This document shows, one piece after another, positions 4,805 through 21,043 of a DNA stretch of 64,000 bases. The stretch's first letter is position 1. Every line of letters starts with the position of its first letter. The notes beneath the pieces are model-generated. The model was not told the origin of the DNA, did no database searches, and was given only the letters and a program-made list of their open reading frames with translations. The stretch is from an uncultured Actinomycetota bacterium. Its GTDB lineage: Bacteria; Actinomycetota; Actinomycetes; UBA12327. The position numbers and the translations under genes were made by a program. The stretch lies in contig CAWKKI010000011.1 in assembly GCA_963850215.1 (NCBI GenBank), forward strand, positions 219,776 to 283,775, in the 5' to 3' direction.

Positions 4805-5236
4805 GTGCCGCACGCGCGCTTCCTCTTCGTCACAGGTCGCCTCATCGCTGGCGTCCCTTCCCCGCACTGGCCAGTTCTTGGTCGCGCCTTCTCTGGTGCT
4901 CCCGGTTACGACGGCTCGTGGGTTGCCTGGCGCGTATCGGGCACCAACAACCGCGAGCTTGGCCGCAGTGCCGAAGTCTTCGAGGATCTCGTGTCCTGCT
5001 TTGAGTCGGCGCTGTACCTGCAGCAGAACATCGGGCGCACCACTGCGGTCGTGGCTGCAGACCATGGCACCGGTCAATGGGTGTGGCAGTTGGACCTGGA
5101 CGGCAAGGCGATGGCCGTCGCGGGTCGCACGTACCAACGCCACCGCGAGTGCCGGCACAGCTTGGCGCAGTTCAGCGAGATCGTCGCCGACCCCACTGCC
5201 CTAGAGCGCATCGTCACTCGGCCAGGCGTCGCATGA
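4805..5236 (+). CDS. Hypothetical protein with two ~45-aa internal repeats (distantly YegP/DUF1508-like), translationally coupled to pstC
   Basis: GTG 4805 is the only in-frame start. Third-position GC is high. The repeats are WVAWRVSGTNNRELGRSAEVFEDLVSCFESALYLQQNI and WVWQLDLDGKAMAVAGRTYQRHRECRHSLAQFSEIV. An ATGA overlap with pstC lies at 5233-5236. Confidence 0.5.
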   Translation: MPHARFLFVTGRLIAGVPSPHWPVLGRAFSGAPGYDGSWVAWRVSGTNNRELGRSAEVFEDLVSCFESALYLQQNIGRTTAVVAADHGTGQWVWQLDLDGKAMAVAGRTYQRHRECRHSLAQFSEIVADPTALERIVTRPGVA

Positions 5237-6261
5237 CCACAGTCATCGACTCCTTCGTGGACTCGGCCGCCCACTCCACCGAGTCGCGTCGCGTGCTACG
5301 AGCCACACCGGACGCCACCGACAAGATCTTCCGGATGTCGGTGCGCGGCAGCGGCATCATCGTTCTCGCGATCATGACGATGGTCGGCGTCTTCTTGCTC
5401 GTTCGTGCGAGCGAGGCGCTGAAGGTCGCTGGGTGGTCGTTCTTCACGACTCAGAACTGGACTCCCGACGTCGGACACGGGCAGTTCGGCATCGTCGCGA
5501 TCATCACCGGCACGATCGCCATCGCACTCGTCGCGTTGTTCGTCGCCATCCCGCTGGCGATCGGAACCGCGCTCTATATATCGGAGTACGCGCCGCGCAA
5601 GTTCAAGCAGACGTTGGTCAGCCTCGTGGACCTGATGGCCGCTGTACCGAGCATCGTCTACGGCCTCTGGGGCGCGTTCTTCCTGCAGTACCGAATTACA
5701 GGCGTCTCGCGCTGGATCTCTACCTACTTCTCCTGGATCCCGATCTTCAAAGTGCCGGGGTCCGATCCGCACGATCCGGTGTCATCGGCGTCGGCCTACA
5801 CGTCGTCCATCTTCATTGCTGGACTCGTGGTCGGTCTGATGGTGACGCCGATCGCCACGTCGATCATGCGTGAGGCTTTCCGCCAGGCTCCGGTCGGCGA
5901 GCGCGAGGGCGCGTATGCGCTGGGTGCGACGCGGTGGGGCATGATCCGCTCGGTCGTCCTGCCGTTCGGAAAGGGCGGCATGATCGGCGGGCTGATGCTC
6001 GGTCTCGGTCGTGCGCTTGGCGAGACGATCGCGGTCGTCACGATCCTGTCGTTCATCGTGCACGTGCAGCCGCACGTCTTGGCCAACGGCGGTAGCTCGG
6101 TTTCCGCCTTGATCGCAACGACCTTCGGGTCGGCCTCGCACTTCGGCCTCTCCGCGCTAATGGCGGCGGGTCTCGCACTGTTCCTCTTGACGCTTGTTGT
6201 GAACTTCATCGCGTCCTCAATCATCGTGCGCAGCCGTTCGGGCGCAGCGACGGATTCATGA
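5233..6261 (+). CDS. pstC: Phosphate ABC transporter permease PstC
   Basis: ORF 5077..6261 was trimmed to ATG 5233. The 342 aa have about 6 TM helices and the EAA-type loop MREAFRQAPVGEREGAYALGATRWGMIRSVVLPFGKGGMIGG. Confidence 0.9.
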   Translation: MTTVIDSFVDSAAHSTESRRVLRATPDATDKIFRMSVRGSGIIVLAIMTMVGVFLLVRASEALKVAGWSFFTTQNWTPDVGHGQFGIVAIITGTIAIALVALFVAIPLAIGTALYISEYAPRKFKQTLVSLVDLMAAVPSIVYGLWGAFFLQYRITGVSRWISTYFSWIPIFKVPGSDPHDPVSSASAYTSSIFIAGLVVGLMVTPIATSIMREAFRQAPVGEREGAYALGATRWGMIRSVVLPFGKGGMIGGLMLGLGRALGETIAVVTILSFIVHVQPHVLANGGSSVSALIATTFGSASHFGLSALMAAGLALFLLTLVVNFIASSIIVRSRSGAATDS

Positions 6262-7661
6262 TGACCGCCGTGATGACCGCGCCCGCGCGGACCGAAGAGC
6301 ACGGGACCACCGTTGTCGACTTGCCTCCCACGTCGCGTCGACGTGAGGTCAGGCGCAATGGGCGCTCCTACCGTCGCAGCGACGTGCTTGCCATCGTCGG
6401 CGCGGGTGCCGCTGGCCTCAGCACCAGCACGCTGTTGTTCACGACGCTGGCGCCGTTCTCTGGCCCCGTTGCCTTCGTGATCATCACGTTCTTGCTCTTC
6501 ATCGCCTTCTACGCCGTCCTCGTCTCGATCGACGAGGATGGCCCGACAGTGCGCGACCGAGTCGCCATGGTCGTCATGCACGGCCTAGCGTTCATCTTGC
6601 TGTCGGCGCTCTGTTTGATCGTCGGATACACCGCGTTCCGCGCTTGGCGTGCGCTCATCCACTGGAACTTCTACACGCAGGACCTCTCGACAGCGGGACC
6701 GACGACACCCCTGAGTCACGGCGGAATCCTGCACGCGGTCGTCGGGACGCTCGAGATGATCACGATTGCGCTGATCCTCACAGTGCCGTTGGCGATCGCA
6801 TGCGCGGTTTACCTCAACGAAGTACCAGGACGATTCGCACGATTCATTCGCACGATCGTCGAGGCGATGACTGCGTTGCCGTCGATCATCGCTGGCCTCT
6901 TTATCCTGGCGACGTTCATTCTGATTCTCGGCGCACCAAAGTCGGGTCTCGCCGCAGCTCTCGCAATCAGCGTCATGATGCTGCCGATCATCATTCGCGC
7001 GGCCGATGTCGTCTTGCGCCTCGTCCCTGGAAGTCTCAAAGAGGCGTCGTATGCGACCGGCGCCAGTCAATGGCGCACGGTGTGGCACGTCACGTTGCCG
7101 ACGGCGCGCTCGGGCCTGGCGACTGCTGTGATTCTCGGTACTGCGCGCGGTATTGGCGAGACCTCGCCAGTCCTGCTCACCGCGGGTTACACCGGTTCGC
7201 TTGCGGTGAACCCGACGCACGGTCCGCAGGTGTCATTGCCGTTGCTGGCGTATCAGCTGAGCCGGTTCCCGCAGGCAACTCTGATCCAACGCGGCTTCGG
7301 CGCAGCAACCGTGCTGCTTGGACTCGTCTTCGTGCTCTTCATCATCGCTCGATTGATCGGTGGTCGCGGGCCTGACGCGTTGTCGCCGCGGCAGCAGCGG
7401 CGCCGCGCGCGCCAGTCCGCGAGCGACGCATCACGCATCGAGGCGCACGACCGGGAGTTGGTCGGGGTCGGCGCTCCGGTCGCGATCGTCGCGTCGCCGG
7501 TGGTCGAGCACGAACCGGAGTGGTTCACGCCCGTTGATGATGACCAGCCAGGCGCTCCGCCGTGGTTCGCGCCCTTGTCGACCCCACCGCCCCCGCCCCC
7601 GGCTGGCATGTACCCGTTCGGCGCGACTGAGCCATTCAAGAAGCCAAGAGGTGCGGAATGA
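6258..7661 (+). CDS. pstA: Phosphate ABC transporter permease PstA with a long Arg- and Pro-rich C-terminal extension
   Basis: An ATGA overlap with pstC is present. The PstA loop is LKEASYATGASQWRTVWHVTLPTARSGLATAVILGTARGIGETSPVLLTAG. About 105 extra C-terminal residues end in PPWFAPLSTPPPPPPAGMYPFG. Confidence 0.9.
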   Translation: MMTAVMTAPARTEEHGTTVVDLPPTSRRREVRRNGRSYRRSDVLAIVGAGAAGLSTSTLLFTTLAPFSGPVAFVIITFLLFIAFYAVLVSIDEDGPTVRDRVAMVVMHGLAFILLSALCLIVGYTAFRAWRALIHWNFYTQDLSTAGPTTPLSHGGILHAVVGTLEMITIALILTVPLAIACAVYLNEVPGRFARFIRTIVEAMTALPSIIAGLFILATFILILGAPKSGLAAALAISVMMLPIIIRAADVVLRLVPGSLKEASYATGASQWRTVWHVTLPTARSGLATAVILGTARGIGETSPVLLTAGYTGSLAVNPTHGPQVSLPLLAYQLSRFPQATLIQRGFGAATVLLGLVFVLFIIARLIGGRGPDALSPRQQRRRARQSASDASRIEAHDRELVGVGAPVAIVASPVVEHEPEWFTPVDDDQPGAPPWFAPLSTPPPPPPAGMYPFGATEPFKKPRGAE

Positions 7662-9438
7662 CCCGCGCCAGAAAGAACAAGGACTCCGTGCGCAAGCGTT
7701 CTCTTCGTCGTGTTCGCACAATCCAACTTGTCGCTGCGGCAGTGGTGCTCGGCGCGTTGGGCGCCGCGCTGTCCGCGGGAGTGGGCCCAACCTCAGCCCA
7801 AGCTGCCTCATACGTTCCGGTCAGTGGCGCTGGCTCGACCTGGAGCCAGGTGGCGATGGATGCCTGGCGAGTCGACGTCGCGCAGTACGGGATGCGCATC
7901 GACTTCTCCGGTACGGGTTCGTCCGACGGTCGCAACCAGTTCCGCAACGGCACGGTCGACTTCGCGAACTCCGACATTCCTTACGGTCTGAAGGACACGG
8001 GCGTTATCGACCCACCCCCAACCCGCGGCTACGCATACATGCCGATCGTCGCCGGTGGCACCACGTTCATGTACAACCTCGTCATCGGTGGACACCGCGT
8101 CACCAACCTGCGGCTGTCCGGTCAGACGCTGACGAAGATCTTCACCAACAACATCACCAAGTGGAACGACCCAGCGATCGCCGCTGACAACCCTGGCTTA
8201 AGCCTTCCTGCACTGAAGATCGAGGTTGTCGTTCGTTCAGATGGATCTGGTTCAACCGCACAGTTCTCCGATTGGATGGCGTCGCAGTACCCATCCTTGT
8301 GGAACGGCTACTGCAGCAAGGCTGGGCGCCCGTCGCCCTGTGGCACCACGTCGTTCTACCCGACAGTCTCTGGACGAGTTTCACCGCACAGAACGGTGAC
8401 ACGGGCGTGGCCGGGTACGTGCAGCAGTCGCAGAACGTCGGCTCTATCGGCTATGTCGAGTACGCATATGCGATCGCGGCGCGCTTCCCGGTTGCGAAGA
8501 TCCTCAACAAGGCCGGCTACTTCACTGAGCCGACGGCACAGAACGTTGCCGTGTCTCTCCTCAAGGCTTCGATCAACACGGACAAGACGTCGCCCGCGTA
8601 TCTCACTCAGGTCCTGTCCGGCGTTTACAACGACACGGATCCGCGAACTTATCCACTGTCCAGTTACAGCTACATGATCATTCCGACTGCGACAACGTCG
8701 ACGTTCACCGCCGCAAAGGGCTACACGCTCGCCGCCTTCGGCTATTTCTTCTTATGCCAGGGGCAGCAGCAGGTCGACCAGCTTGGCTACTCCGCGCTGC
8801 CGATCAACCTCGTGCAGGCTGGCTTCGCGCAACTCAAGCGGATCCCGGGCGCCGTGGCGCAGACGATCAACATCAAGGGCTGCAACAACCCCACTTTCTC
8901 CAGCAGCGGGGCGAACACGCTTGCCACGACTGCACCGCAGCCAGCCAAGTGCGACAAGCAGAGCAAGTACCAGTGCTCTACGGGCACTGCAGGTGACTTG
9001 AGTCCAACGCCCATCTTGGCTTCGGCGGTGCTCCCGGGCAGTGGCTCGGTGTCGAACGGTGGCACGGGCAACACCTCCGGTACCGGTTCATCAGGAACTA
9101 GCGGGTCGGGGACCAATGGCGCCGGAACAACGGGCGCCGGAACAACGGGCGCCGGAACAACGGGCGCCGGAACGACCGGCGGTACCGGCACGGCAGGAAA
9201 CGGGACAACCGGTGCGGCCGGCACAGGAGGCACGGCAGGTACTACTAACACTGCCGGATCCAACCTCGCCGGGGGAGCCGCGACATCAGACGTGGCGGCA
9301 ATCGCAGTCACCGTTCCTGGCGCAGGCGAGTCGAGCAGTGACATCGCGCTGATTGTTGTGGCCGGACTGCTGCTGCTCGGCATCACGCTGGGACCTCCCG
9401 CGATGTCAGTCGCGATGCAACGAAAGAACAAGGAATGA
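7658..9438 (+). pseudogene. PstS-family phosphate-binding protein, C-terminally membrane-anchored, with its reading frame broken by a 1-nt indel
   Basis: Frame-2 ORF 7658..8677 gives a signal peptide (SAQA/AS) and the PstS N-lobe blocks SGAGSTW, GTGSSDG, VDFANSDIP and VRSDGSGST. Frame-1 ORF 8272..9438 continues with the C-lobe (NGDTGVAGYVQQSQNVGSIGYVEYAYA). A Gly/Thr/Ser linker and a C-terminal TM helix plus QRKNKE follow. The halves join only if one nucleotide is added between 8358 and 8376 (YPTVSG|TSFTAQNGD). Confidence 0.75.
9118..9177 (+). repeat. 15-bp tandem repeat x4 (GGCGCCGGAACAACG) encoding (GAGTT)n in the linker of the PstS-like protein
   Basis: Three DNA-identical copies occupy 9118-9162. 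A fourth copy at 9163-9177 has 2 substitutions. Confidence 0.9.
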
Positions 9439-11924
9439 GCACGCGCGGTCAGCACCGCGGTCGTCGGGAGAGCTTCCTGCGTGCCATGACGCGCGCAGGT
9501 GTCGGTACTTCGCTGATCGCAATCCTGGGACTTGTCGCGCTCACTTTTGCGACTGGTCCTGGACCAGCGAACGCAGCATCCACCAAGGCCAAGCCGCTCG
9601 CGGCCAGTTCGGGTTCTGCGCTCACGAAGAGTGGGTCGGGATCCTTTTCAGATCTCAAGGTCACCCTGAGTCAGACGCAAGACCTCGTGAACCAGGTAAT
9701 CAATGTCACCTGGACGGGCGCAGCCCCAACACAGCCGGCGTACGGAGGCTTCGGCATCAACTATCTGCAGATCATGCAGTGCTGGGGGGACGACTCGTCG
9801 GGGCCCACTCGCGAACAGTGCGAGTTTGGCGGCAACCCAGGTAACACCCTTGGCGGGAGTTGGACGTCGTCGCGGCAGACCACGTACAGCGGGCTGGTGG
9901 ATCCGAACGAGACCTACACCGTGCCCCCGGGCAGTTTTGCCAACGCCTACGTCCCATTCGACTCGGTCACCGGAACCGTCGAAAAGGATGGGGCTAGCTC
10001 CTTCTTCGACTCGTACACGACCAACGAGATTGACTACGCGCGCACTCACTCCGACGGCTCCGGCCAGGAGTACTTCCAGATCGACACCGGTGTGGAGGCT
10101 TCAGGGCTCGGCTGCGGCCAGTCCGAGAAGGTCGGCTCGACCTCTAAGCCACGTGCGTGCTGGCTCGTGGTCGTCCCGCGAAATGACATTGAGGTCGACG
10201 GCAGTACCCGTGACGCCACCGGTGTGAACGAGATCGTGTCCTCGCCGTTGAGTGCGACCAACTGGGCAAAGCGCATTGTGTTTCCACTCGGTTTCACAGC
10301 CGTCGGGCAGAACTGCCCAATCTCGGCGATCGCCGAGCCGACGAGCGGGGAAGAGACTGCGCTCGAGGCCGTAACCCGATGGCAACCAACCCTGTGCGCG
10401 AAGAACGGACCGGTCTTCGGTTACACCCAGTTGTCGTCGGACGTGTCGCGCAGCGTCTTGGCCTCAACCACCCCAAATCTGCAGTTCCTGTCGAGACCGC
10501 TAGACGCGACGGACGGGACCCCTGCGGGCAAGCCGGTCTATGCACCCGTATCTGTGTCGGGAGTCTCGATCGCATTCCTGATTGAACGACAGACGTCGCC
10601 AACCGCAGATCCAGCAGTGAAGGCTTCCGATGGGGTTCGAATGGGGACCCTGAATCTGACTCCGCGGCTTGTCGCGAAACTTCTGACTGAGTCCTACCGC
10701 GAGGCCGTTACCTCAGACGACGCGACTTACCTCGCGAACAACCCGCTCGACTTGACGCGCGATCCAGAGTTTCTTGCTCAAAACCCCGACTTTTCAACGT
10801 TGAAGTACCTCAACGGCATCTCGAGCATCATCGTGCCTACGGGTACGGCAGATGCGTACTACCAACTGTGGCAATGGATTTGGGCAAACGCTGACGCGCG
10901 CGCCTTCCTGCAGGGCAAGGCCGATCCCTACGGCGAGACCGTCAATCCCCACTACAAGACCCTGACTTTTCCTGCGGACAACTTCCCGAAGGCTGAACCG
11001 GCCTGCAGGACCTTCCCGTTGTCGACCATCTCCCGCCCGCCCCTCTGTGAGTTGGACGCGTTCCCGTACGCGATCAGCATGCACGCGGGAGCGCAGGCAG
11101 TCAGCGGCGGTAGCGACCTATCCAAGGACCTGTGGGACCCGACTGCGACACCGCCCTCCTACAAGGCATCGCCACCGCAGATCGAAGGCAACCGGGGACT
11201 CCTCGTGCTCGCGGACACCCCGACCGCAATTCGATACGGCCTGAATATGGCGAGCCTGCAGAATTCAGATGGTCAGTTCGTGGCCCCCACCACCACGAGC
11301 ATCACTGCGGGTTTGAAGACGTTCAAGGCGGATTCTGCTGGCGTACTGGAGCCGGTGGCGGCGACGAAGGTCAGCGGCGCATACCCGCTGACGACCATCA
11401 CCTACGCGGCAACTGCACCGTCAAAACTCACGCCTGCGTCCGCGCATGACTACGCAACTTTCCTGCGCTATGCAATCGGTTCAGGTCAAACCCTCGGCGT
11501 CGCGCCGGGCTCTCTCCCGTACGGCTACGTGCCGCTCACGTCTGGGCTAAAGGCAACAACTGCAACGGTCGCGAACGAACTCGCTGCCGTAAAGGCCACG
11601 AGTGCGACGCCGGCGTCGACGCCCACGACTGGCAACACGTCGGGCGAACTAGGTGACTCGTCAGGTGGCTCGACCGGTGACTCGTCGTCCGCTACCTCTC
11701 AGACAACTTCGAACGTTGCTGCGCCTACCGGAACCGGTAGCGCGACGCAACCAACCAGCACGTCGCCCGCTGGCGACGCGCTCTCCCTGACCCCCGCGGC
11801 CGTCCGCTCGCCATCGGTTCCGATCGGTGCTGTGCGATTCGCGCTCGTGGGCGCACTACTCATCGGAGGCATCGCGGCCGGCGCCGGTCCGTTGCTGATG
11901 AGGGCTTCACAGGTGGCGGTGTGA
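9435..11924 (+). CDS. Large secreted, C-terminally membrane-anchored protein with an unassigned N-terminal region and a divergent PBP-like C-terminal region
   Basis: 829 aa, with an ATGA overlap with the upstream gene. It has a signal peptide (GPANA/AS) and a ~300-aa Cys-containing region with no recognised family. PBP-like blocks are PVYAPVSVSGVSIAFL, LNLTPRLVAKLLT and AYPLTTITYAA. A Ser/Thr/Gly-rich linker and a terminal TM helix (FALVGALLIGGIAAGAGPLLM) follow. Confidence 0.8.
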   Translation: MSTRGQHRGRRESFLRAMTRAGVGTSLIAILGLVALTFATGPGPANAASTKAKPLAASSGSALTKSGSGSFSDLKVTLSQTQDLVNQVINVTWTGAAPTQPAYGGFGINYLQIMQCWGDDSSGPTREQCEFGGNPGNTLGGSWTSSRQTTYSGLVDPNETYTVPPGSFANAYVPFDSVTGTVEKDGASSFFDSYTTNEIDYARTHSDGSGQEYFQIDTGVEASGLGCGQSEKVGSTSKPRACWLVVVPRNDIEVDGSTRDATGVNEIVSSPLSATNWAKRIVFPLGFTAVGQNCPISAIAEPTSGEETALEAVTRWQPTLCAKNGPVFGYTQLSSDVSRSVLASTTPNLQFLSRPLDATDGTPAGKPVYAPVSVSGVSIAFLIERQTSPTADPAVKASDGVRMGTLNLTPRLVAKLLTESYREAVTSDDATYLANNPLDLTRDPEFLAQNPDFSTLKYLNGISSIIVPTGTADAYYQLWQWIWANADARAFLQGKADPYGETVNPHYKTLTFPADNFPKAEPACRTFPLSTISRPPLCELDAFPYAISMHAGAQAVSGGSDLSKDLWDPTATPPSYKASPPQIEGNRGLLVLADTPTAIRYGLNMASLQNSDGQFVAPTTTSITAGLKTFKADSAGVLEPVAATKVSGAYPLTTITYAATAPSKLTPASAHDYATFLRYAIGSGQTLGVAPGSLPYGYVPLTSGLKATTATVANELAAVKATSATPASTPTTGNTSGELGDSSGGSTGDSSSATSQTTSNVAAPTGTGSATQPTSTSPAGDALSLTPAAVRSPSVPIGAVRFALVGALLIGGIAAGAGPLLMRASQVAV

Positions 11925-12012
11925 TCAACCGCCGAATCCTTCCTGCTCCACCCGCACGACGGCAGGTCGCGACACCGGGTCTCGACTGCCGAGCACAAGA
12001 AGGAGACAGTCA

Positions 12013-13032
12013 GTGAATTTCAAGACAGCTCGACGCCTTGCGGTGGCCGCTGCCGCCGTGGCCGTCGTCGCCGGGGCGATCAGCGTGGGCTCTGCTTCCG
12101 CTGATCCGTCCGGCACTCCGACCTACCGTGAGTTTGCGGGCGTCGGTTCCGACACGGTGCAAGGCGTCTACAACGCGTTCAGCAACAACATCACCATCAG
12201 CAGCACGAAGGTCATTGGCTCGTATGACGCCACTGGCTCTGCCACGATCCAGACCAAGGCGACCGGCTGCTCGGCCGTCACGCGTCAGAACGGTTCGGGC
12301 GCTGGCAAGACCGGCCTGCTCGCGAGCCTCAACGCCAACGACGGTTGCGTCCAGTTCTCGCGTTCCTCCAGCGCGCCCTCCGGTACAACTTCGCCAAGCC
12401 TGACCTACGTCCCGTTCGCCACTGACGCTGTGACCTACATGGTCACGGCCACAAGCAACATCCCGCGCCAGCTCACGCAGGCGCAGCTCGTCAGCATCTA
12501 CGCGTGCGGTGGCGACCCGACCATCAAGGCGCTCGTGCCCCAGGCCGGTTCCGGTACCCGCTCATTCTGGGAGTCCAAGGTCAGCATCACCGACTCGAAC
12601 GTTGACTCGGTTGCCTACCCCTGCCTCAAGGACACGGTCAACTCCCAGAGCGTTGAGGAGCACGACGGTCGCGTCCTCGACGACAACTCCATCGCGCCGA
12701 TCTCCGTTGCGCAAAACATTGCTCAGGAGGAAGGCACGATCAGCGACATTCGTGGCCAGGCCGTTCTCGGCCAGATCTCGAACGCCGCTGGCACGTCCTA
12801 CGCCCTGCCGATCACGATGAACTCAGCAATTCCGTTCACTCGTGAGGTCTACAGCGTGATCCCGACCTCGGTCATCGGTGTGTCAACAGGCACGACTAAC
12901 GGCACCTCGAACGCGGATTACAACACCGTGTTTGTCGGCGGTTCGTCGCTGGTTTGTGCACAGAGCCTCACCATCCAGGCGTACGGATTCGCGATTGACC
13001 CAGCCTGTGGAACCACCAGTCAGCACACCTGA
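12013..13032 (+). CDS. Secreted PstS-like / type-2 periplasmic-binding-fold substrate-binding protein
   Basis: 339 aa. AAGGAG lies 8 nt upstream of GTG. It has a signal peptide and the blocks GVGSDTV, NGSGAGKTGL, VQFSRSS and VPQAGSGTRSFW. No anchor was recognised. Confidence 0.8.
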   Translation: MNFKTARRLAVAAAAVAVVAGAISVGSASADPSGTPTYREFAGVGSDTVQGVYNAFSNNITISSTKVIGSYDATGSATIQTKATGCSAVTRQNGSGAGKTGLLASLNANDGCVQFSRSSSAPSGTTSPSLTYVPFATDAVTYMVTATSNIPRQLTQAQLVSIYACGGDPTIKALVPQAGSGTRSFWESKVSITDSNVDSVAYPCLKDTVNSQSVEEHDGRVLDDNSIAPISVAQNIAQEEGTISDIRGQAVLGQISNAAGTSYALPITMNSAIPFTREVYSVIPTSVIGVSTGTTNGTSNADYNTVFVGGSSLVCAQSLTIQAYGFAIDPACGTTSQHT

Positions 13033-13075
13033 TCCTTCCCTCGCGCAATCCAAATAACAGAGAGAGAGAAAGCTC

Positions 13076-14638
13076 GTGTGGAATAAAAAGATTGCGCGGA
13101 CGTTCGCCGCGGTCAGTGCTACGGCACTGATCGTTGGCGGCGCCGCGATCGCAGCATCATCTGCTGCAAACGCCCTCACCGACGGCACGGCCGTCATTAC
13201 CGGTGGAACGACGACGACCTCGTCGCTCGTCCTCAACACCAACGGAACATGTGCAGACCCGAATGCCACGAACGTCGTGGTCAAGATCAGCGGTACCGGC
13301 TTCCCGGCCGGTGGCGCAAACGTCGTGGGCAACAGCCCGGCAAGCAACTTCGCTAGCGGTTCGAACTACTCGATTCCGATCAGCAACACGCTCCAGGTGA
13401 TCGGGAACGCGCAGTCTCCGGCCGTCGTCTACTCCGGCACCTACACGTTTGACGTGGTTTGCCGTACTGCGCTGAGCTCGACGTCCCTCGGAGACTTCTT
13501 GGGGACCATCACGTTCAGCACCCCCACCACATTTAGTGCCGACCCGGCCACGCCGATCGCCACTGGCACCACGTTGGCTCTCGGCACTGCAAGCCCGATC
13601 GCCTTCGGCACCTCGGAGACACTGACCGCCACCGTCACCGGTGGAGCCTCCGGTTCTGTGCAGTTCCAGGACAACCTGACCAACATCGGTTCACCGGTGG
13701 CCGTGAACGCCTCCGGCGTTGCTACCTACACGACCTCAGCGCTGGATGCTGGGTCGCACTCGCTCACCGCGGTGTTCACTGGCTACAACCCATCCAGCGT
13801 CACCGGCTCGACGTCGACTGCGCAGGACCTCACCGTCAACCAGACGACTAGTTCGACTGCCCTGAGCTTCACTCCCGCTTCAGGTGCGGACTCGAACACC
13901 TCGCTCGGCCTCACTGCAACGATCACACCGTCCGCCGCGGCGGGCACCGTTCAGTTCGTTGACGGTTCGACCAACATCGGCGGTCCGGTGAACGTCGTCA
14001 GCGGCGTGGCCTCCACGTCGGGGCTCTTCGCCGAGGGTGCTCACACGTTCCACGCGGTGTTCACACCTAGCGACCCCACCAATGTCGCGGGTTCGAACGA
14101 CGTCCAGCCGTACACCGTTTTGCACTACGGCGGCGTTACCGCTACTGACAACATCCAGACAGAGGTTCCCGCCGGTGGTCTCGTGATCAGCGTCGCGAGC
14201 CCGGGCGCCCAGGACCTCGGTCCGATGGCGCTTAACGGCACCAGCAACCTCTTGAACGTCACCGGCACTCTGCTCAACGTCACGGTGACTGACACCCGCG
14301 CTGGCACTCACGCTGGCTGGACTGCGTCCGGCATCGTCAGTGACTTCGCTGGTCCGACGGCATTCGCGATTGCTGGCGCCAACCTTGGTTGGACTCCCGC
14401 GGTCGTGAGCCACTCGCTGAACCAGACAGTCACCGCTGGACCGGCAGTTGCGTCGGCCCTTGGCGTCTACACGTCCGGCGAGACCGGCGGCCTGCACTCC
14501 ACGCAGACCCTCGCCTCTTCGGCTGCGTCGCCGAACTCGAACGGCACCGCGGTGCTGAACGCAGCGCTCAACCTGAACGCGCCCACTGACACCCCAGCGG
14601 GCACGTACGTCGCAACCCTCACGCTGACCGCCATCTGA
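13076..14638 (+). CDS. Secreted surface protein: shared N-domain + three bacterial Ig-like repeats + WxL-like C-terminal domain
   Basis: 520 aa with a signal peptide. Residues ~30-155 are the paralogous N-domain. The Ig-like repeats follow the pattern TLTATVTGGASGSVQFQD...GSHSLTAVFT. The C-terminal ~190 aa carry VTVTDTRAGTHAGWTASG and ANLGWTPAV, and end in AGTYVATLTLTAI. Confidence 0.8.
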   Translation: MWNKKIARTFAAVSATALIVGGAAIAASSAANALTDGTAVITGGTTTTSSLVLNTNGTCADPNATNVVVKISGTGFPAGGANVVGNSPASNFASGSNYSIPISNTLQVIGNAQSPAVVYSGTYTFDVVCRTALSSTSLGDFLGTITFSTPTTFSADPATPIATGTTLALGTASPIAFGTSETLTATVTGGASGSVQFQDNLTNIGSPVAVNASGVATYTTSALDAGSHSLTAVFTGYNPSSVTGSTSTAQDLTVNQTTSSTALSFTPASGADSNTSLGLTATITPSAAAGTVQFVDGSTNIGGPVNVVSGVASTSGLFAEGAHTFHAVFTPSDPTNVAGSNDVQPYTVLHYGGVTATDNIQTEVPAGGLVISVASPGAQDLGPMALNGTSNLLNVTGTLLNVTVTDTRAGTHAGWTASGIVSDFAGPTAFAIAGANLGWTPAVVSHSLNQTVTAGPAVASALGVYTSGETGGLHSTQTLASSAASPNSNGTAVLNAALNLNAPTDTPAGTYVATLTLTAI

Positions 14639-14667
14639 TTGGCCTAAGTGCGAGGTAGCTCCACACC

Positions 14668-14703
14668 GGGGGTGGGGCGGGTTCTCGGACCTGTCCCACC
14701 CCC
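14668..14703 (+). terminator. GC-rich stem-loop between the WxL-like and DUF916-like genes (possible intra-operon attenuator)
   Basis: GGGGGTGGG (14668-14676) pairs perfectly with CCCACCCCC (14695-14703) across an 18-nt loop. No U-tract follows. Confidence 0.35.
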
Positions 14704-14720
14704 ACCAAAAGCCCGGTGAC

Positions 14721-15857
14721 ATGAACGAACGATCTAGTGAACGGAAACGAGACGTGAAGCACCGCTTGCTCCGCCGTACGCGTGCAGGGGCTGCATTGTT
14801 CGCAGCACTCGCCTGTGTGCTCGCGTCGAGTGCACCCGCCTGGGCGTCCTCGCCCACCCCGTCTCCCAGTGCATCGCCCTCACCGACATCGAAGGCGGTG
14901 CCAGCGACGTTCGGGCTACAACCGGCGACAGCTGGCAAGCCCGATGCGCGCTCAGATTTCTCCTTCCAAGCCGAACCCGGCGCGACGGCGTCTGACGAAG
15001 TAGCGATCCAGAACTTCGCGTACAAGCCGATCACCCTGCAGCTCTACTCAGCCGACGGCTATAACACCTCCGACGGCGGCTTTAGCGTCCTACCGGCTGG
15101 TGACAAGTCGAGCGAGGTCGGGGCTTGGGTTGTGTTGCCCCGTGCTTCGGTGTCGATTCCTTCTCGCGGCAAAGTGATCGTGCCGTTTACGATCCGCGTG
15201 CCTGCTGCGGCCCTTCCGGGCGACCACGAAGGCGGCATTGTCGCATCTCTGACGACCTACGGGACTCGGCCAAACGGCGAGCAATTCAAGGTATTCAACC
15301 GCGTCGGCGATCGCGTGCTAGTCCGCGTGACTGGCGCCCTCACTGCGCATCTCGCGTTGAGCAACGTGCATGCCAGTTATACGGGTTCGCTTAATCCGGA
15401 CGGCAAGGGCTCTGTCCGAGTTTCCTACTCCGTCACAAACACGGGCAACGTGGTGTTGGGCGCCACCCAACTCGTCACCGTGAAAATGCTCTTCGGCTCT
15501 TCCGCCCGGACCACGGGGCTTCCGGTCTTGCCTGGCCTGCTTCCGGGTAACGGTGTCTCGCAAACGGTCACGCTGCCTGGAGTTTGGCCTCAACTCCGTG
15601 GCAAGGCCACGGTAATCATCCAGCCGTTGGCGCCTGCTGGCGTCAGCGCGCCATCTGCCTCAGAAGCTGTTGCGACCACGTCGTTCTGGGCTATCCCGTG
15701 GTCGACGATCGCGATCCTCCTGCTTATCGCGCTAGCCATGGCGGGCTGGTGGTACTGGCGCCATCGCCGAGCAACCTCGGGCGGCTCCTCGCGTGGCAAG
15801 CGCGCGCGCGGGAAGGTCCCGCCTACTCCCCAACCACAGAAGGAATTGGTGTCGTGA
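14721..15857 (+). CDS. DUF916/DUF3324-like (WxL-interacting-protein-like) surface protein with a C-terminal TM anchor
   Basis: 378 aa with a signal peptide. The N half (FGLQPA...DFSFQAEPGATASDEVAIQNFAYKPITLQLYSADGYN...GDHEGGIVASL) matches the DUF916 pattern. A second beta-rich half follows, then the TM helix ILLLIALAMAGWWYW and a basic tail. Confidence 0.8.
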   Translation: MNERSSERKRDVKHRLLRRTRAGAALFAALACVLASSAPAWASSPTPSPSASPSPTSKAVPATFGLQPATAGKPDARSDFSFQAEPGATASDEVAIQNFAYKPITLQLYSADGYNTSDGGFSVLPAGDKSSEVGAWVVLPRASVSIPSRGKVIVPFTIRVPAAALPGDHEGGIVASLTTYGTRPNGEQFKVFNRVGDRVLVRVTGALTAHLALSNVHASYTGSLNPDGKGSVRVSYSVTNTGNVVLGATQLVTVKMLFGSSARTTGLPVLPGLLPGNGVSQTVTLPGVWPQLRGKATVIIQPLAPAGVSAPSASEAVATTSFWAIPWSTIAILLLIALAMAGWWYWRHRRATSGGSSRGKRARGKVPPTPQPQKELVS

Positions 15858-16717
15858 ACTTCCGCAGGTACCGGCGTGTTCAGGCCGGATTACTAACGAG
15901 CGTCGTGGCTGTCGTGGTCATGGGCGGCGTTGTCGCCACTGCAAATGCCGCGCCAGTGCCCGCGCAATCGTCGATGAGCACTCTCTCGTTCAGCCCGGCA
16001 TCGGGCAACGACCAGACCCGCATGTCTGTCACCACGTCAGGGCCCTGCTCGGCAGGAACGAATCTGATCGTTCGCGTCTATGGGTACGGGTTCCCAACAC
16101 AGGGTCAGAACGTCGTGGGAAACACGGCCGTGTCGACCTTCGTTGAGACTGCAAACGGTGGTCGGGTAGTGCCCCTTGAAGACACGATGCGCAGTTTCGC
16201 GGCGCAGCAGGCGACCCCGTTTCTCCTGAAGGGCAAGTACACGTTCGGGCTGCGTTGCATCCAGCCGCTTCAGTGGGACACCCCGCTCGACCTGTTCACG
16301 GGTGCGATCAACTTCACCTCGGCCGGCGCTTACTCGGCGCTTCCAGCATCGGCCGCGAGCGTGCCCAAGGGTGCCAACAATGTGCCCGTCGCCACGACGA
16401 CCCCCAAGTCGTCGTCCACGACGCCAGCGAAATCGGCGACTCCTTCTTCAAGTCCGACGGCGGCTGTGAGTTCGACGCCAGCTAGCAGCGCCGCACCAAC
16501 AACGTCGGACGCTGGCTCGGTTCCAGGCGCCTCCTCGGGCGCCCAGGCGGCCGGGGCACCCGTCGCCTCAACCTCCCTGTCGGGTGGCGGTGGCTCGATG
16601 GCGTGGCCGCTCCTACTGGCGTTGGTCGCCATCGCGCTCATTGCCGCTGGCGTCTTCTGGTATTTCCGGCGCGAGCCGGCGTCCGCAAATCCGTCCGCGC
16701 ACCGCACGAGAAAGTGA
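15854..16717 (+). CDS. Secreted protein: shared N-domain + Ser/Thr/Pro/Ala-rich linker + C-terminal TM anchor
   Basis: ORF 15584..16717 was trimmed to GTG 15854 (GTGA overlap). It has a signal peptide (ATANA/AP). The N-domain carries GYGFPTQGQNVVG and YTFGLRC. The anchor is a TM helix LLLALVAIALIAAGVFWYF plus RRE. Confidence 0.75.
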   Translation: MNFRRYRRVQAGLLTSVVAVVVMGGVVATANAAPVPAQSSMSTLSFSPASGNDQTRMSVTTSGPCSAGTNLIVRVYGYGFPTQGQNVVGNTAVSTFVETANGGRVVPLEDTMRSFAAQQATPFLLKGKYTFGLRCIQPLQWDTPLDLFTGAINFTSAGAYSALPASAASVPKGANNVPVATTTPKSSSTTPAKSATPSSSPTAAVSSTPASSAAPTTSDAGSVPGASSGAQAAGAPVASTSLSGGGGSMAWPLLLALVAIALIAAGVFWYFRREPASANPSAHRTRK

Positions 16718-17946
16718 CCCCCGCAGTGAACATCTCCGACACGGCGAAGACCACTACCCGCACGACTGTGCGCCGGAGCAGGTCCGTGATGGCCGCTGGC
16801 ATCGTCTCGCTCGCCACGGCGATCGGCTTTGCCGGCGTTGCGTTGAACATGCCTGCCGCCTCGGCGGCTTCCGAGGGAGCACTGACAATCGCTCCCGCAA
16901 GCGGCACGGATACCTCATTGCTTACGGCGACGACTACAAGTACTTGTAGTGATCCGTCGGCTGACCACTTTTCAATCTCGATCTCGGGTAGTGGTTTCAC
17001 CGGTCAGGTCAATGTCGTCGGTACGTCCAGTCTCACCACGGTCACCTCGGGGAACGGCTATTCAGCTCCCATCCAGAACACGTTGGCCGTGATCGCTTCG
17101 CTCCAGTCGCCAGCAGTCGTCTACACCGGCGACTACGTCCTCGACTTCAAGTGCCGCAGTGCCATTAGCTCCACGAGTCTCGGCGACTTCACCGGAACGA
17201 TCCACTTCACCGACCCGCACACGTACACGTTCGTAGCACCAACGACGAGCCCTTCGACGTCGCCGTCAACGAGCCCCTCAACTAGCCCTTCGACGTCGCC
17301 GTCAACGAGCCCGTCAACAAGTCCTTCGACGAGCCCCTCAACCAGCCCGTCGACAAGTCCGTCGACGAGCCCCTCAACCAGCCCCTCAACCAGCCCATCG
17401 ACGTCGCCGTCCACGACCCCGTCCGACAGCACATCTGCGAGTGCAAGCCCCACCGACTCGACGAGTCAAATCACCTGTTCCGCGACCGATGACATGGGCA
17501 CACCGCTTGGCGACAACCCGACACTCGACCCGGGCCAGAACGTCAGCGTGACCGCCACGGGCTTTGCTGCGGCTGCCTCAGTTGATGTGACGGTGCATTC
17601 GACGCCGCAGGATCTCGGCACTGTTACAGCGGACTCCACGGGCACCGTCACTTACGCGTTCCTTGTGCCAACGACCCTCGAGGCGGGAGCGCACACTCTG
17701 GTGTTCACCTCGGGATCAACGACCGGGACGTATGCCTTTGTCGTCAGCACGACCGCGGCTACCACGGCGGCAGCCGACGGCGGTACGACCGATGGTGGGA
17801 CGACGGACACCGCTGGGTCGACGCTGCCTCACACCGGGGCTGATGTGGTCATCTACCTGCTTGTGGCTCTCATCCTGATGGTCACTGGAGTGGGTTTCCT
17901 CGCGTGGAGCGGTGGGCTCGTGACATCAAACGGACGGCACCGGTGA
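16714..17946 (+). CDS. LPXTG cell-wall-anchored protein: shared N-domain + (STSP)n linker + Ig-like domain + LPHTG sorting signal
   Basis: GTG 16714 forms a GTGA overlap, and GTG 16726 is an alternative start. It has a signal peptide (AASAAS) and an N-domain with GSGFTGQVNVVG and YVLDFKCR. The C-terminus is LPHTG + hydrophobic helix + GRHR. Confidence 0.8.
   Translation: MTPAVNISDTAKTTTRTTVRRSRSVMAAGIVSLATAIGFAGVALNMPAASAASEGALTIAPASGTDTSLLTATTTSTCSDPSADHFSISISGSGFTGQVNVVGTSSLTTVTSGNGYSAPIQNTLAVIASLQSPAVVYTGDYVLDFKCRSAISSTSLGDFTGTIHFTDPHTYTFVAPTTSPSTSPSTSPSTSPSTSPSTSPSTSPSTSPSTSPSTSPSTSPSTSPSTSPSTSPSTTPSDSTSASASPTDSTSQITCSATDDMGTPLGDNPTLDPGQNVSVTATGFAAAASVDVTVHSTPQDLGTVTADSTGTVTYAFLVPTTLEAGAHTLVFTSGSTTGTYAFVVSTTAATTAAADGGTTDGGTTDTAGSTLPHTGADVVIYLLVALILMVTGVGFLAWSGGLVTSNGRHR
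17245..17418 (+). repeat. Coding (Ser-Thr-Ser-Pro)n array of about 14 units of 12 nt with synonymous-codon variation
   Basis: The translation is TSPSTSPSTSP...STTPS. Ser is coded by AGC/TCG/TCA/AGT/TCC and Pro by CCT/CCG/CCC/CCA. Only short stretches are DNA-identical. Confidence 0.9.
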
Positions 17947-18947
17947 TCACGGTGCTTGAGCGCACGTTGGTAGCCATCGCTTCGGGGTCGCTTCTCGCCG
18001 GCGCCTTGGTGTTGCAGGCTGGGGCGGCCCACGCCGTTTCGGTCGGCAGTCTTACCGTTGCCCCAACCTCGGGCAGCGACGCGTCTCTCTTGACGTTGGC
18101 GACCGGAAGTACCTGCACGGATTCGTCTGCCACCTACGTCTCGGTTGCGATCAGCGGCTCCGGATTCGCTGCGGGTGGCACGAATGTTGTGGGCGCTGCC
18201 CAGATCAGTGACCTCACTCATTCGGCAACGGGGTATGTGATCCAGGTCAGCAACACGCTGGCCGCGATCGCGTCACTTCAGCATCCCGCGGTCACTTATG
18301 TCGGCGACTACACCTTCGACGTCAAATGTCGGTTGGCTCTGGACTTCACCAGCCTGGGCGACTTCACAGCAACGATCCACTTCAGCGATCCGCACACGTG
18401 GTCCGTGGTGAGCGGCACTGCGCCGCACTTCACCATCGCGGCGCACCTCACCGGAACCGCTCGTGTTGGCTACACCTCGGGTTGCTCGGCGTCGGTCACT
18501 GGCTCGACCAGCCTTCAATACGTATGGCTGCGCAACGGCGTCACCATCTCAGGCGCCACGCACTCCACCTACGTGGTGCAGCCGGCCGACAATGCCCACA
18601 CCTTGGCATGCGAGCTGATCGCCAAGAACGCTGCCGGTTCCACGACGAGCAAGGCCGCGGCCCGTTATGTCGAGCCCGGCTATCTGCACAACGTGGTGCA
18701 TCCGACTCTCTCCGGTCACGCCATCCACGGCTACACGTTGGCCTGCCGAGCGGGTGCCTGGTCACCGGCACCCAGCCATTACGCATATGGCTGGCTGCTC
18801 AACGGTGTTCACATCCGAGGCGCGGCGGCAAGCACGTTGAAGTTGGCGACCACCTACAAGGCGCACACGATCGCTTGTCAGGTCACTGCGTCAAAGACCG
18901 GATACCTCAGCGTCACAGTGCGAACGAGCGCGGTGAAGGTCAGCTGA
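17943..18947 (+). CDS. Secreted protein: shared N-domain + two Ig-like repeats, no anchor recognised
   Basis: ORF 17904..18947 was trimmed to GTG 17943 (GTGA overlap). It has a signal peptide (QAGAAHA) and an N-domain with GSGFAAGGTNVVG and YTFDVKCR. Two ~80-aa repeats follow the pattern G..L.C...W...P..YAYGWLLNG..I.GA...Y......H.IAC.V.A. Confidence 0.75.
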   Translation: MITVLERTLVAIASGSLLAGALVLQAGAAHAVSVGSLTVAPTSGSDASLLTLATGSTCTDSSATYVSVAISGSGFAAGGTNVVGAAQISDLTHSATGYVIQVSNTLAAIASLQHPAVTYVGDYTFDVKCRLALDFTSLGDFTATIHFSDPHTWSVVSGTAPHFTIAAHLTGTARVGYTSGCSASVTGSTSLQYVWLRNGVTISGATHSTYVVQPADNAHTLACELIAKNAAGSTTSKAAARYVEPGYLHNVVHPTLSGHAIHGYTLACRAGAWSPAPSHYAYGWLLNGVHIRGAAASTLKLATTYKAHTIACQVTASKTGYLSVTVRTSAVKVS

Positions 18948-18949
18948 CC

Positions 18950-20035
18950 GTGTCCCTTGACTCCGAGGCCGCTCTGGCCGTTGGTACTGAACCGGTAGCG
19001 CCGGTCGCCAACGGCCAGTCCGGTGCTGTGCCGTCCAACGGGACTCACGTAACAGAACTCGCGGCGCCCAACCCCGCGGAGATGGTCGACCTGCCGCACC
19101 CGGACCTCGGCACGCCGAGCACCGAGTTGCAGGTCGATGCCGACGATCATCTAGTCGATGACGACGACGAGGAGTCGACGGCCGCCCCACGCCGCGACGG
19201 GCTCTGGATCATGGGCGTCGCCCTGACCACACTCGGCGTCATCGTGCTCGGCTTTCTGGCTGCATTCCTGGTGATCGGCCCGATCAAGTACCACCGTGCG
19301 CAGACCGTGGAGTACGCGCAACTGCGCTACGAACTCGCGAACTCGATCGCGCCGGTCGGTCAAACCGACTACAACGGCAAGCTTCTGACCCCTGGCACAC
19401 CAGTGGCTCTGCTCAGCATCCCGGCCATCAAGCTGACGACGGTTGTGTCCGAGGGCACGACTGGCGAGATCCTGCAGAACGGGCCTGGACATCGGCGTGA
19501 CAGCGCGATGCCAGGGCAGCCCGGAGCCAGCGTCATCTATGCGCGTCGGCTCGGCTTCGGCGGTCCGTTCGGATCTCTGCCTTCGTTGAAGCCCGGTGAC
19601 CCGATCTACGTGACTACCGGACAAGGCGTCTCGACGTACACCGTTGCGGACGTGCGCTACGCCGGGGACAAAGAACCGTCGGTGCAGATCAATCACGGCT
19701 TGCTCAGTCTGGTTACCGCCGGCGGCTCGCGCTTCCTGCCCAACGGAGTTGTAGCCGTTGACGCGAATCTGACGTCGACACCGCAGCAGGCGCCCGGTGC
19801 CGTGATCGGCTCTAACGCCCTGAGCCGCTCGGAAGGCCCGATGCAGGGCGATCCGAGTGCTTGGGTCGGGCTCGTGCTCTGGGGTGAGCTACTCGTTGGC
19901 GCGACGGTCGCCATGGTGTGGGCGCGCAAGCGATGGGGGATATGGCAAGCCTGGATTGTTGGCGTTCCCGTAGTCGTTCTCCTGGGAGTTCTGGTTGCCA
20001 ACCAGATCACCACCTTGCTACCGAACATGCTGTGA
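18950..20035 (+). CDS. Sortase-fold homologue lacking the catalytic His, Cys and probably Arg (cysteine-free), with one N-terminal and two C-terminal TM helices
   Basis: ORF 18326..20035 was trimmed to GTG 18950, 2 nt after the previous stop. The blocks GPGHRRDSAMPGQPGASVIYARRLGFGGPFGSLPSLKPGDPIYV and LLSLVTAGG align by eye to the sortase GH-PG / IAGHR / GAPF / GD and TLxTC blocks. There is no Cys anywhere in the 361 aa. Confidence 0.75.
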   Translation: MSLDSEAALAVGTEPVAPVANGQSGAVPSNGTHVTELAAPNPAEMVDLPHPDLGTPSTELQVDADDHLVDDDDEESTAAPRRDGLWIMGVALTTLGVIVLGFLAAFLVIGPIKYHRAQTVEYAQLRYELANSIAPVGQTDYNGKLLTPGTPVALLSIPAIKLTTVVSEGTTGEILQNGPGHRRDSAMPGQPGASVIYARRLGFGGPFGSLPSLKPGDPIYVTTGQGVSTYTVADVRYAGDKEPSVQINHGLLSLVTAGGSRFLPNGVVAVDANLTSTPQQAPGAVIGSNALSRSEGPMQGDPSAWVGLVLWGELLVGATVAMVWARKRWGIWQAWIVGVPVVVLLGVLVANQITTLLPNML

Positions 20036-20041
20036 GCACTG

Positions 20042-21043
20042 ATGACTAACGAGGGTGAAATGACAGCCACCGACGACTTCTCCATCGCACTGCCCGACGC
20101 AAACGGGCATGCAGCGAACGGCCTCGCCGCGACCCTGCCGGCATACGCGGGAGCCCCAGCGATGACGGTCATCCCCGGACAGCCGATGCCACACGTGGCA
20201 CCGCCGGTGCCGCAGCAACCCGACGAGGTCGTGCTTCCGGGCGCTCGGCCCAACGGTGTTCGCGGCGCGATCGGAGACCTCGACGCACGCTCGATCTCTG
20301 CCTGGTTCGGCGATCACAAGGTGCTCGACCGAGTCTCGTTGCACATGCCGAGTGGCGAGGTAACCGCGCTTATTGGACCTTCCGGTTGCGGCAAGTCGAC
20401 GTTCCTGCGCACGTTGAATCGCATGCACGAGTTGATCCCGTCGGCATCCCTGGCCGGCGAGGTTCTCCTCGACGGCCAGGACATCTACGCGCCCGATCGG
20501 CGCCTCACCGAGGCACGACGACAGATCGGGATGGTCTTTCAACGCCCCAACCCTTTCCCCGCGATGTCCATTTACGACAACGTGATCGCGGGGCTGAAGC
20601 TCACCGGCAAGAAGGCGTCGACGGCTGAGAAGGACGGAATTGTCGAGACGCACTTATGAAGGCCGGGCTGTGGAAGGAAGTCAAGGACCGGCTGCGGCAG
20701 CCAGGCGGTGGACTTTCCGGTGGTCAGCAGCAGCGGCTGTGCATCGGACGGGCCCTTGCGTATCCAGCCGCGCGTGCTGCTTATGGACGAGCCATGTTCG
20801 GCGCTCGACCCGACGTCGACGCGCCGAATCGAGCAGACGATCGTCGAGCTTCGCGAAGAAGTGACGATCGTCATCGTCACGCACAACATGCAGCAGGCCG
20901 CGCGCGTCTCAAGCCGATGTGCCTTCTTCCTGGCGGAGGCCGGCACGCCAGGCGTGATAGTCGAGCACGGCTCAACCGAGGCGATGTTCGAAACTCCGCG
21001 CGACCCGCGCACCGCCGACTACGTGAATGGGCGCTTCGGTTAG
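20042..21043 (+). pseudogene. pstB: Phosphate ABC transporter ATP-binding protein PstB, interrupted by two compensating frameshifts
   Basis: Frame 2 (20042..20659) carries Walker [10 protein letters not shown] and ends at TGA 20657. Frame 1 (20656 to ~20760) carries [31 protein letters not shown]. Frame 2 resumes from 20762 with [33 protein letters not shown] and YVNGRFG. There is also an unusual ~75-aa Pro-rich N-terminal extension. Confidence 0.8.

Follow-up and report, generated by a model that had tools for sequence, protein, structure and literature searches.

The 64,000-nucleotide stretch of DNA analysed here (the window), from an uncultured member of the Actinomycetota, encodes two adjacent proteins, P0001 and P0002 (Table 1), that are actinobacterial counterparts of a large WxL protein and of its WxLIP/ElrE-type partner. 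Probably the two constitute a membrane-tethered capture and display device that acts by donor-strand complementation. Their kinship with this system is supported alike by profile matches, by fold, by the order of the genes and by the modelled mode of binding. Earlier reports limit the system to lactic-acid bacteria and related groups, but it is also widespread in Actinomycetota, in an altered form.

WxL/DUF916 clusters have been described as features of the Firmicutes (Siezen 2006, PMC1534035; Hassan 2022/2023, PMC10599100), with 91% of WxL sequences found in that phylum and the cluster defined as one WxLIP plus two WxL proteins (PMC10599100). They have been newly reinterpreted as chaperone-guided donor-strand-exchange pili in an October 2026 preprint (10.64898/2026.10.17.759780), according to which the elr operon of Enterococcus faecalis builds a pilus. 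In this pilus ElrD polymerises by donor-strand exchange, ElrE (DUF916, DUF3324 and a transmembrane helix) is the donor-strand chaperone, ElrA is a large tip protein with a C-terminal WxL domain, and ElrB is a small LPXTG base; the pilus is anchored by SrtA, and in the ElrE-ElrD pair the chaperone strand runs parallel to strand F. With sortase removed, WxL alone gives no detectable wall retention, and the domain is assigned to strand exchange. The same preprint screened 4,698 genera, demanding that a single protein reach the gathering scores of both PF06030 and PF11797, and found operons in Bacillota only, with mention of 'a small Actinomycetota satellite' among the chaperones. Proteins of the P0002 type fail this screen because they have no PF11797 match.

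P0001 is a large protein with a C-terminal WxL domain

P0001 is composed of a Sec-type signal peptide, a head of ~125 residues with two cysteines, two Big_3_5 domains, and a C-terminal domain. When the C-terminal 191 residues are scanned alone they match the Pfam WxL family (PF13731) with 20.2 bits and E 6.5e-4, below the gathering score of 25 bits, yet all 22 aligned relatives of the domain match the same family at E≤0.1 (best E 1.5e-8) and some pass the cut-off, such as P0041 (25.4 bits) and the same-genome paralogue L001 (28.6 bits). The domain has 279 homologues, mostly in Streptomyces, Pseudonocardiaceae and Micromonosporaceae and with 45–50% identity; most are annotated as 'Ig-like domain repeat proteins', and many carry a precomputed PF13731 assignment. 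The blocks VTDTRAG..GW, NLGW and GTY.ATLTLTAI are strongly conserved in the family, and in 22 of 22 aligned relatives the WxL domain ends at the stop codon, at the last strand.

An AlphaFold2 model of the WxL domain is all-beta, with a core pLDDT of ~85–94. The nearest solved folds are donor-strand-accepting pilin domains, CfaE first, followed by Csu, CS17, FimG/H and EcpA. VIA-align superposes the CfaE pilin domain with Z 8.3 (root-mean-square deviation 4.7, 129 residues aligned) or Z 8.0 (3.1, 119 aligned), middling values that indicate the fold class only. Single-sequence and profile searches of PDB sequences with the domain returned nothing meaningful, and Foldseek gave no match to the model at E≤0.001. 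As modelled, the domain has an immunoglobulin (Ig)-like fold that stops with its last strand, one edge being left open.

The source genome (2.47 Mb in 18 contigs, with the window on contig 11) is 76% complete, and a six-frame search of it identifies three WxL genes, each for a large protein, and a single DUF916 gene, so that one chaperone/anchor may serve all three WxL proteins. The two further proteins, both large and with the WxL domain at the C-terminus, are L001 (685-1869 on contig C8) and L002 (~450-2022 on contig C17), and have no DUF916 gene nearby; the L002 gene appears to be split over three frames.

P0002 is a DUF916 protein with a predicted membrane anchor

P0002 begins with a signal peptide and an S/P-rich linker, which precede a DUF916-like beta-sandwich (residues 64–205) and a second beta-sandwich (211–323). 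From the AlphaFold2 model and the sequence, a C-terminal transmembrane helix is placed at residues 327–353, followed by a basic cytoplasmic tail (RHRR...). An alternative called start, GTG at 14754, would shorten the protein to 367 residues. Scores against PF06030 (DUF916/WxLIP_PGBD) are 26.8 bits for the whole open reading frame, 28.0 for the ectodomain and 29.4 in the six-frame search, on either side of the cut-off of 27.3, and make P0002 by itself a borderline member of that family. Eighteen of 20 relatives match PF06030, with a best E of 1.2e-10 and scores of up to 41.9 bits. The relatives are abundant, with 3805 representative clusters found by exhaustive phmmer at E≤1e-3; of these, 692 reach E≤1e-30.

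A profile of the 20 relatives matches the solved EfmWxLIP1 of Enterococcus faecium in the PDB (E 1.5e-8). The AlphaFold2 model of P0002 (pLDDT 81.9) has the E. faecium WxLIP structures 9i1y and 9i25_C as its top Foldseek matches, with E 1.8e-12 to 7.8e-12, a TM-score of 0.55 by target, and alignments of ~275–287 columns that run across both domains at a sequence identity of ~14%. The second beta-sandwich aligns with 9i1y_A (287 columns against a chain of 267 residues) despite having no DUF3324 match. The chaperone-usher chaperones CfaA, EcpB, CupB2, FimC, CsuC, Caf1M and SafB follow WxLIP in the Foldseek results.

The original prediction, made from the letters of the window and a list of its open reading frames, had read the two genes as a WxL and DUF916 pair. 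The sequence blocks that it quoted are all present where it placed them in the translations of both frames. Its WxL-type domain at the end of the first protein is borne out by the relatives, and its DUF916-like pattern and transmembrane anchor in the second by the PF06030 scores and the modelled helix; similarity to the two families, on which it made the pairing depend, is found by profile and by the fold match to WxLIP. It had also pointed to DUF3324, which finds no counterpart here (see below).

P0001 and P0002 are conserved neighbours with a predicted donor-strand interface

Of at least 554 stretches of species-representative genomes with confirmed relatives of the chaperone gene, 80 loci were kept and scanned with hidden Markov models built from our own alignments. 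A WxL-domain gene lies directly upstream and on the same strand in 67 of the 72 loci that have upstream room, with a median gap of 173 nt.

When the P0002 ectodomain and the P0001 WxL domain are modelled as a complex, the ipSAE is 0.79 (0.76, 0.79 and 0.82 in the separate runs), and the best control gives 0.00. The partners have a pLDDT of at least 74, and at least 80% of the contacts are common between runs. The mark used for this score is reached by 58 of the 80 complexes with solved structures, and by 2 of 110 mismatched pairs, a calibration that is rough, as our own alignments were used. Contacts 192-187, 193-188, 194-189, 195-190 and 196-191 in the model describe a P0002 strand that lies parallel to the WxL domain's C-terminal strand, while residues 63-67 of P0002 lie antiparallel to the first WxL strand. 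The predicted donor strand comprises P0002 residues 188-198, within the last strand of domain 1 (E188-203), at what we take to be the topological place of the G1 strand of PapD-like chaperones. In this modelled geometry P0002 would bind the WxL domain by lending it a strand.

Distribution

The 80 related loci are nearly all from Actinomycetota and include Streptomyces, Micromonospora, Saccharothrix, Actinokineospora, Frankiales, Acidimicrobiales, Acidothermaceae and Glycomyces. In an even sample of 401 genomes of the phylum, relatives of P0002 are present in at least 56, and in at least 46 of the 249 genera covered; these are floors, because a stricter first look was used. The 56 include two unpublished genomes (G001 and G048), which bear on no other result.

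The pair also occurs in other company. In Micromonospora deserti (L045, 8373-14231) a WxL protein with a choice-of-anchor M/TIGR03773 head is followed by a DUF916 protein, an ABC binding protein of the anchored-repeat type, and an LPRTG protein in which domains of this kind abound. With a different head and an ABC binding protein beside it, the pair thus has the character of a movable module for display, joined to the surface sets of ABC importers.

There is no second or small WxL gene in the window and no small one in the 76%-complete genome, in which the two other WxL genes are large and on other contigs. A search for pilin-size relatives of the WxL domain gave 10 matches, mostly contig-end fragments. 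In locus L010 a gene at 10795-11727 encodes a WxL-only protein of ~200 residues when mature, located between the DUF916 gene and the sortase homologue, and is a candidate for a true pilin.

Head-domain neighbours and a sortase homologue without cysteine

Each of the three genes after P0002 encodes a further copy of the two-cysteine head of P0001 (29–50% identity in alignment A3), and each of the four copies is joined to a different type of anchor: a WxL tail, a transmembrane tail, an LPHTG signal, and none. The head corresponds to no family in Pfam, NCBIfam or ESM-Atlas; its best Atlas score of 0.80, to unnamed actinobacterial clusters, is a lead only. In the LPHTG protein the head is joined to a (PSTS)n linker, encoded by ~15 copies of a 12-nt tandem repeat at 17245-17423, and this is followed by a further beta-rich domain, the LPHTG signal, a hydrophobic stretch and a basic tail. 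At their N-termini the mature head proteins have an alternating small/hydrophobic pattern, e.g. S-E-G-A-L-T-I.

Two of the three neighbouring head genes overlap the gene before them. The GTG start of the transmembrane-tailed paralogue lies on the P0002 stop (GTGA, 15854-15857) with GAAGGA ~10 nt upstream, and that of the third paralogue lies on the stop of the LPHTG gene (GTGA, 17943-17946). These overlaps suggest that P0002 is translationally coupled to the transmembrane-tailed protein, and the LPHTG protein to the head protein after it. Sorting signals of the LAxTG type are common on the head-domain genes downstream of the chaperone gene in the related loci, by a crude count in which anchors were classified from stop-to-stop open reading frames and the LPHTG protein of the window was misfiled as having a transmembrane tail.

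Beside the gene for the PstB-like ATPase is a homologue of sortases that scores 73.9 bits with the class E model, below the cut-off of 160. It reads LSLVTAGG at the position of the TLxTC motif, with the histidine (GPGH) kept. The 39 sortase homologues of these clusters have the consensus LTLxTAxG, and just one of them has any cysteine. A canonical TLTTC sortase (LMTLTTCNP) is encoded on contig C3 (L085) of the same genome.

Table 1. Coordinates of the WxL/DUF916 pair and of neighbouring features in the window
Feature	Position	Strand	Evidence or description
PstC	5077-6261	+	TIGR02138, 251.7 bits, above equivalog cut-off
PstA	6258-7661	+	TIGR00974, 198.3 bits, above equivalog cut-off
PstS-like binding protein, transmembrane tail, two frames	7658-8677 and 8272-9438	+	PBP_like_2 halves
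PstS-related protein, 829 residues, transmembrane-tailed	9435-11924	+	Weak PstS match
Degenerate PstS-like protein, 339 residues	12013-13032	+	Weak PstS match
P0001, WxL protein, 520 residues	13076-14638	+	Big_3_5 E 5e-21; PF13731 20.2 bits
P0002, DUF916/WxLIP-type protein, 378 residues	14721-15857	+	PF06030; EfmWxLIP1 profile match; Foldseek WxLIP
Transmembrane-tailed head paralogue	15854-16717	+	S/T/P/A-rich linker, C-terminal transmembrane helix, basic tail
LPHTG head paralogue, ~385 residues	16789-17946	+	Gram_pos_anchor E 0.0016
Head paralogue with Ig-like repeats, no recognisable anchor	17943-18947	+	
Four head-domain copies	13163-13564, 15956-16363, 16855-17247, 18024-18422		~125 residues, two conserved cysteines
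Sortase-fold protein without any cysteine	19211-20035 (start may be ATG 19082)	+	PF04203 E 6.5e-16
PstB-like ATPase, two frame changes	20042-20900	+	TIGR00972 match on both pieces; three-frame translation

Proposed mechanism and alternative explanations

In the mechanism that we propose, P0001 and P0002 would both be exported by the Sec pathway, and a strand of P0002 would fill the open edge of the P0001 WxL domain, so that P0001 would be captured at the outer face of the membrane with its two Ig spacers and two-cysteine head held outward. Since no WxL pilin is found here or in most related loci, the process would end with P0001 bound to its chaperone, or with one transfer to an anchored neighbour, and not with a long polymer. 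The pair would then be a display module within a conserved PstSCAB-like cluster whose transmembrane-tailed and LPXTG proteins bear this head as well. A role of the cluster in phosphate capture may be surmised from the company of its genes.

Several points weigh against this interpretation. Neither of the classical Trp-x-Leu motifs is intact in the alignment of the P0001 family: the first reads GW-T-A, with an invariant W followed by x-[AVLS], and the terminal one reads L-T-L, with Leu in place of Trp; the LGW at P0001 residues 437–439 is invariant too. The Pfam matches of P0001 and P0002 themselves are borderline, at or below the curated cut-offs, and PF11797 (DUF3324) is matched by none of the 20 P0002 relatives at E≤0.1. 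The long-WxL chain of the solved structure 9i25 is absent from the Foldseek and VIA-align rows returned for the WxL model. The same WxLIP-WxL complex, released in January 2026, may contribute to the confidence of the complex model, which in any case says nothing about affinity and supports binding without showing it. A small WxL gene does follow the chaperone gene in one of the 80 related loci (L010, an Actinocrinis metagenome-assembled genome), and with a genome that is 76% complete a pilin gene could be in the missing part. Lastly, the frame changes in the PstS-like and PstB-like genes may reflect decay of the cluster or assembly indels.

One alternative is an assembly line of the Elr type. 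P0002 would act transiently, and the P0001 groove would finally be filled, through donor-strand exchange, by the N-terminal strand of a head-sharing neighbour, either the LPHTG protein or the transmembrane-tailed protein, leaving P0001 linked to the wall or membrane or built into short head-to-tail chains. Such an arrangement follows the published logic of ElrA, ElrE and ElrB in E. faecalis, and would suit the coupling of the gene after the chaperone through its GTGA overlap, the crude count of LAxTG-type signals on many downstream head-domain genes of related loci, and the small WxL gene of L010 at the position after the chaperone. The alternating small/hydrophobic N-termini of the mature head proteins could likewise serve as donor strands, but in alignment A3 this stretch resembles the first strand of the folded two-cysteine Ig-like domain, and in our judgement it is likelier strand A of that domain than a free donor strand like that of ElrB. 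The pilin is also absent, and the sortase homologue of the cluster lacks cysteine. We consider an assembly line of this kind unlikely.

A more elaborate scheme, which we regard as something of a long shot, would have the genes encode an envelope-spanning apparatus put together by strand exchange, in which the WxL groove of the distal protein is passed from the chaperone to the N-terminal strand of the wall- or membrane-anchored head paralogues, the sortase homologue without cysteine serves as a non-catalytic assembly or signal-holding factor, and stacked heads pass a phosphate-containing ligand inward to tethered PstS and on to PstCAB.

In the classical static model (Brinster 2007; Hassan 2023) the WxL domain would attach to peptidoglycan by non-covalent binding, with P0002 having no more than a stabilising part at the wall. 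In its favour is the way in which WxL domains were first described from experiments, as summed up in PMC10599100 and in the discussion of the preprint 10.64898/2026.10.17.759780; that preprint itself, however, finds no detectable wall retention by WxL alone without sortase. Moreover, both Trp-x-Leu motifs are altered in P0001. Actinobacteria also differ from enterococci in their peptidoglycan and wall polymers, which counts against the static model too, and we judge it very improbable. That P0001 and P0002 are chance neighbours, two unrelated beta-rich surface proteins with weak Pfam matches due to composition, would fit the low scores of the window's own proteins but is scarcely credible given that their relatives match the same two families (PF13731 in 22/22, PF06030 in 18/20), that profile and fold both match the solved WxLIP, that the adjacency in 67/72 loci extends across many families of the phylum, and that the complex controls score 0.00.

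Relationship to known systems

The proposed capture of P0001 by P0002 through a lent strand has a close parallel in the Elr pilus. As in that system, the putative chaperone is a two-domain protein anchored to the membrane by a C-terminal transmembrane helix, an LPXTG protein is present in the locus, and the predicted donor strand comes from the end of chaperone domain 1 and runs parallel, as in ElrE-ElrD. In contrast to the elr operon, the window has no small WxL pilin (ElrC/D), the second domain of P0002 is not recognisable as DUF3324, the LPXTG protein is of ~385 residues with a folded head rather than a 98-residue strand donor, the sortase homologue has no cysteine, and the genes lie inside a Pst-type transporter cluster in a host that belongs to the Actinomycetota.

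With the csc/WxL clusters (cscA-D; PDB 9i1y, 9i25) the window shares the pairing of a WxL gene with a gene encoding DUF916 and a transmembrane helix, and a beta-strand of the DUF916 domain that is predicted to insert beside the WxL fold. It differs in that both Trp-x-Leu motifs of P0001 are altered and P0002 is only ~14% identical to the solved WxLIP. The original prediction had seen the cscA-D logic recapitulated; what stands of this is a WxL protein beside an anchored DUF916 protein, together with an LPXTG protein, whereas a small cscB-like WxL protein is missing, DUF3324 is unrecognisable and the sortase lacks cysteine. The LPXTG protein, which it took to be small, has a length of ~385 residues and shares its head with the WxL protein. 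Non-covalent attachment to peptidoglycan, which it implied, has since been revised for the Firmicute systems (10.64898/2026.10.17.759780), and the complex model here has donor-strand geometry. Phosphate-binding proteins, which it placed in the locus, are indeed encoded there as PstS-like proteins.

The chaperone-usher systems (CfaA-CfaE, FimC-FimH, CsuC-CsuA/B) are similar in having a two-domain Ig-like chaperone, an acceptor Ig-like domain that lacks its last strand, and parallel donor-strand complementation, modelled in the present case. There is no detectable sequence relation to them, and unlike their chaperones P0002 is membrane-anchored, with no usher and no outer membrane. A different resemblance is to the choice-of-anchor M/TIGR03773 proteins with the anchored-repeat ABC transporter TIGR03772, where, as in the Micromonospora locus L045, one head domain is likewise found on several anchors beside an ABC importer; both the head domain and the transporter class of the window are different.

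The occurrence of these relatives in Actinomycetota indicates a greater age or mobility of the chaperone-WxL principle than had been assumed, and the pilin-less form may reveal the function of the minimal module. In about half of the loci the pair is accompanied by a Pst-type importer, by binding proteins on tethers and by a dead sortase, which points to a nutritional role rather than one in host adhesion, and this role is testable in the Streptomyces strains that have the same cluster.

The Pst-type gene cluster and its genomic setting

The genes of interest, from ~5077 to 21000, are all transcribed rightwards, with short gaps or overlaps between them. The G+C content of the window is 62–67%, and the P0001 and P0002 frames show the excess of G+C at third codon positions that is typical of real genes in this genome (0.78 and 0.71). 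An antisense open reading frame at 13880-15034 was rejected as a gene, its codon-position G+C pattern being reversed. A scan for promoters and terminators found sites no more numerous than in shuffled sequence.

The equivalog matches of the PstS-like and PstB-like genes are to pieces on either side of frame changes, and the two further PstS-like proteins match weakly. In the first PstS-like gene the N-terminal half of the PBP_like_2 domain is in 7658-8677 and the C-terminal half, with a G/T-rich linker and the transmembrane tail, in 8272-9438; the frame changes near 8300-8370, where either the assembly has an indel or the gene a real frameshift. The GAGTT linker of this protein corresponds to a 15-nt repeat at 9118-9181. 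The PstB-like gene passes from frame 0 to 2 and back to 0 inside ~150 nt, with the Walker A and signature motifs in different frames. Together with the split PstS-like gene and the split L002 WxL gene, these changes suggest that the assembly contains indel errors or that the locus is decaying.

The cluster is nonetheless conserved. The order PstS, big PstS, PstS, WxL, DUF916, head proteins and sortase recurs in Streptomyces, Pseudonocardiaceae, Acidothermaceae, Frankiales and others, and WxL, PstS-like and sortase genes occur together in 38 of the 80 related loci. Soil-metagenome sequencing runs contain small shares of the window only (≤0.20 of words), and no RNA run was listed among those with a share of it. 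The Pst-like cluster is closely preceded, on the minus strand, by a gene for an Rce1-like CAAX-type intramembrane protease (3516-4550).

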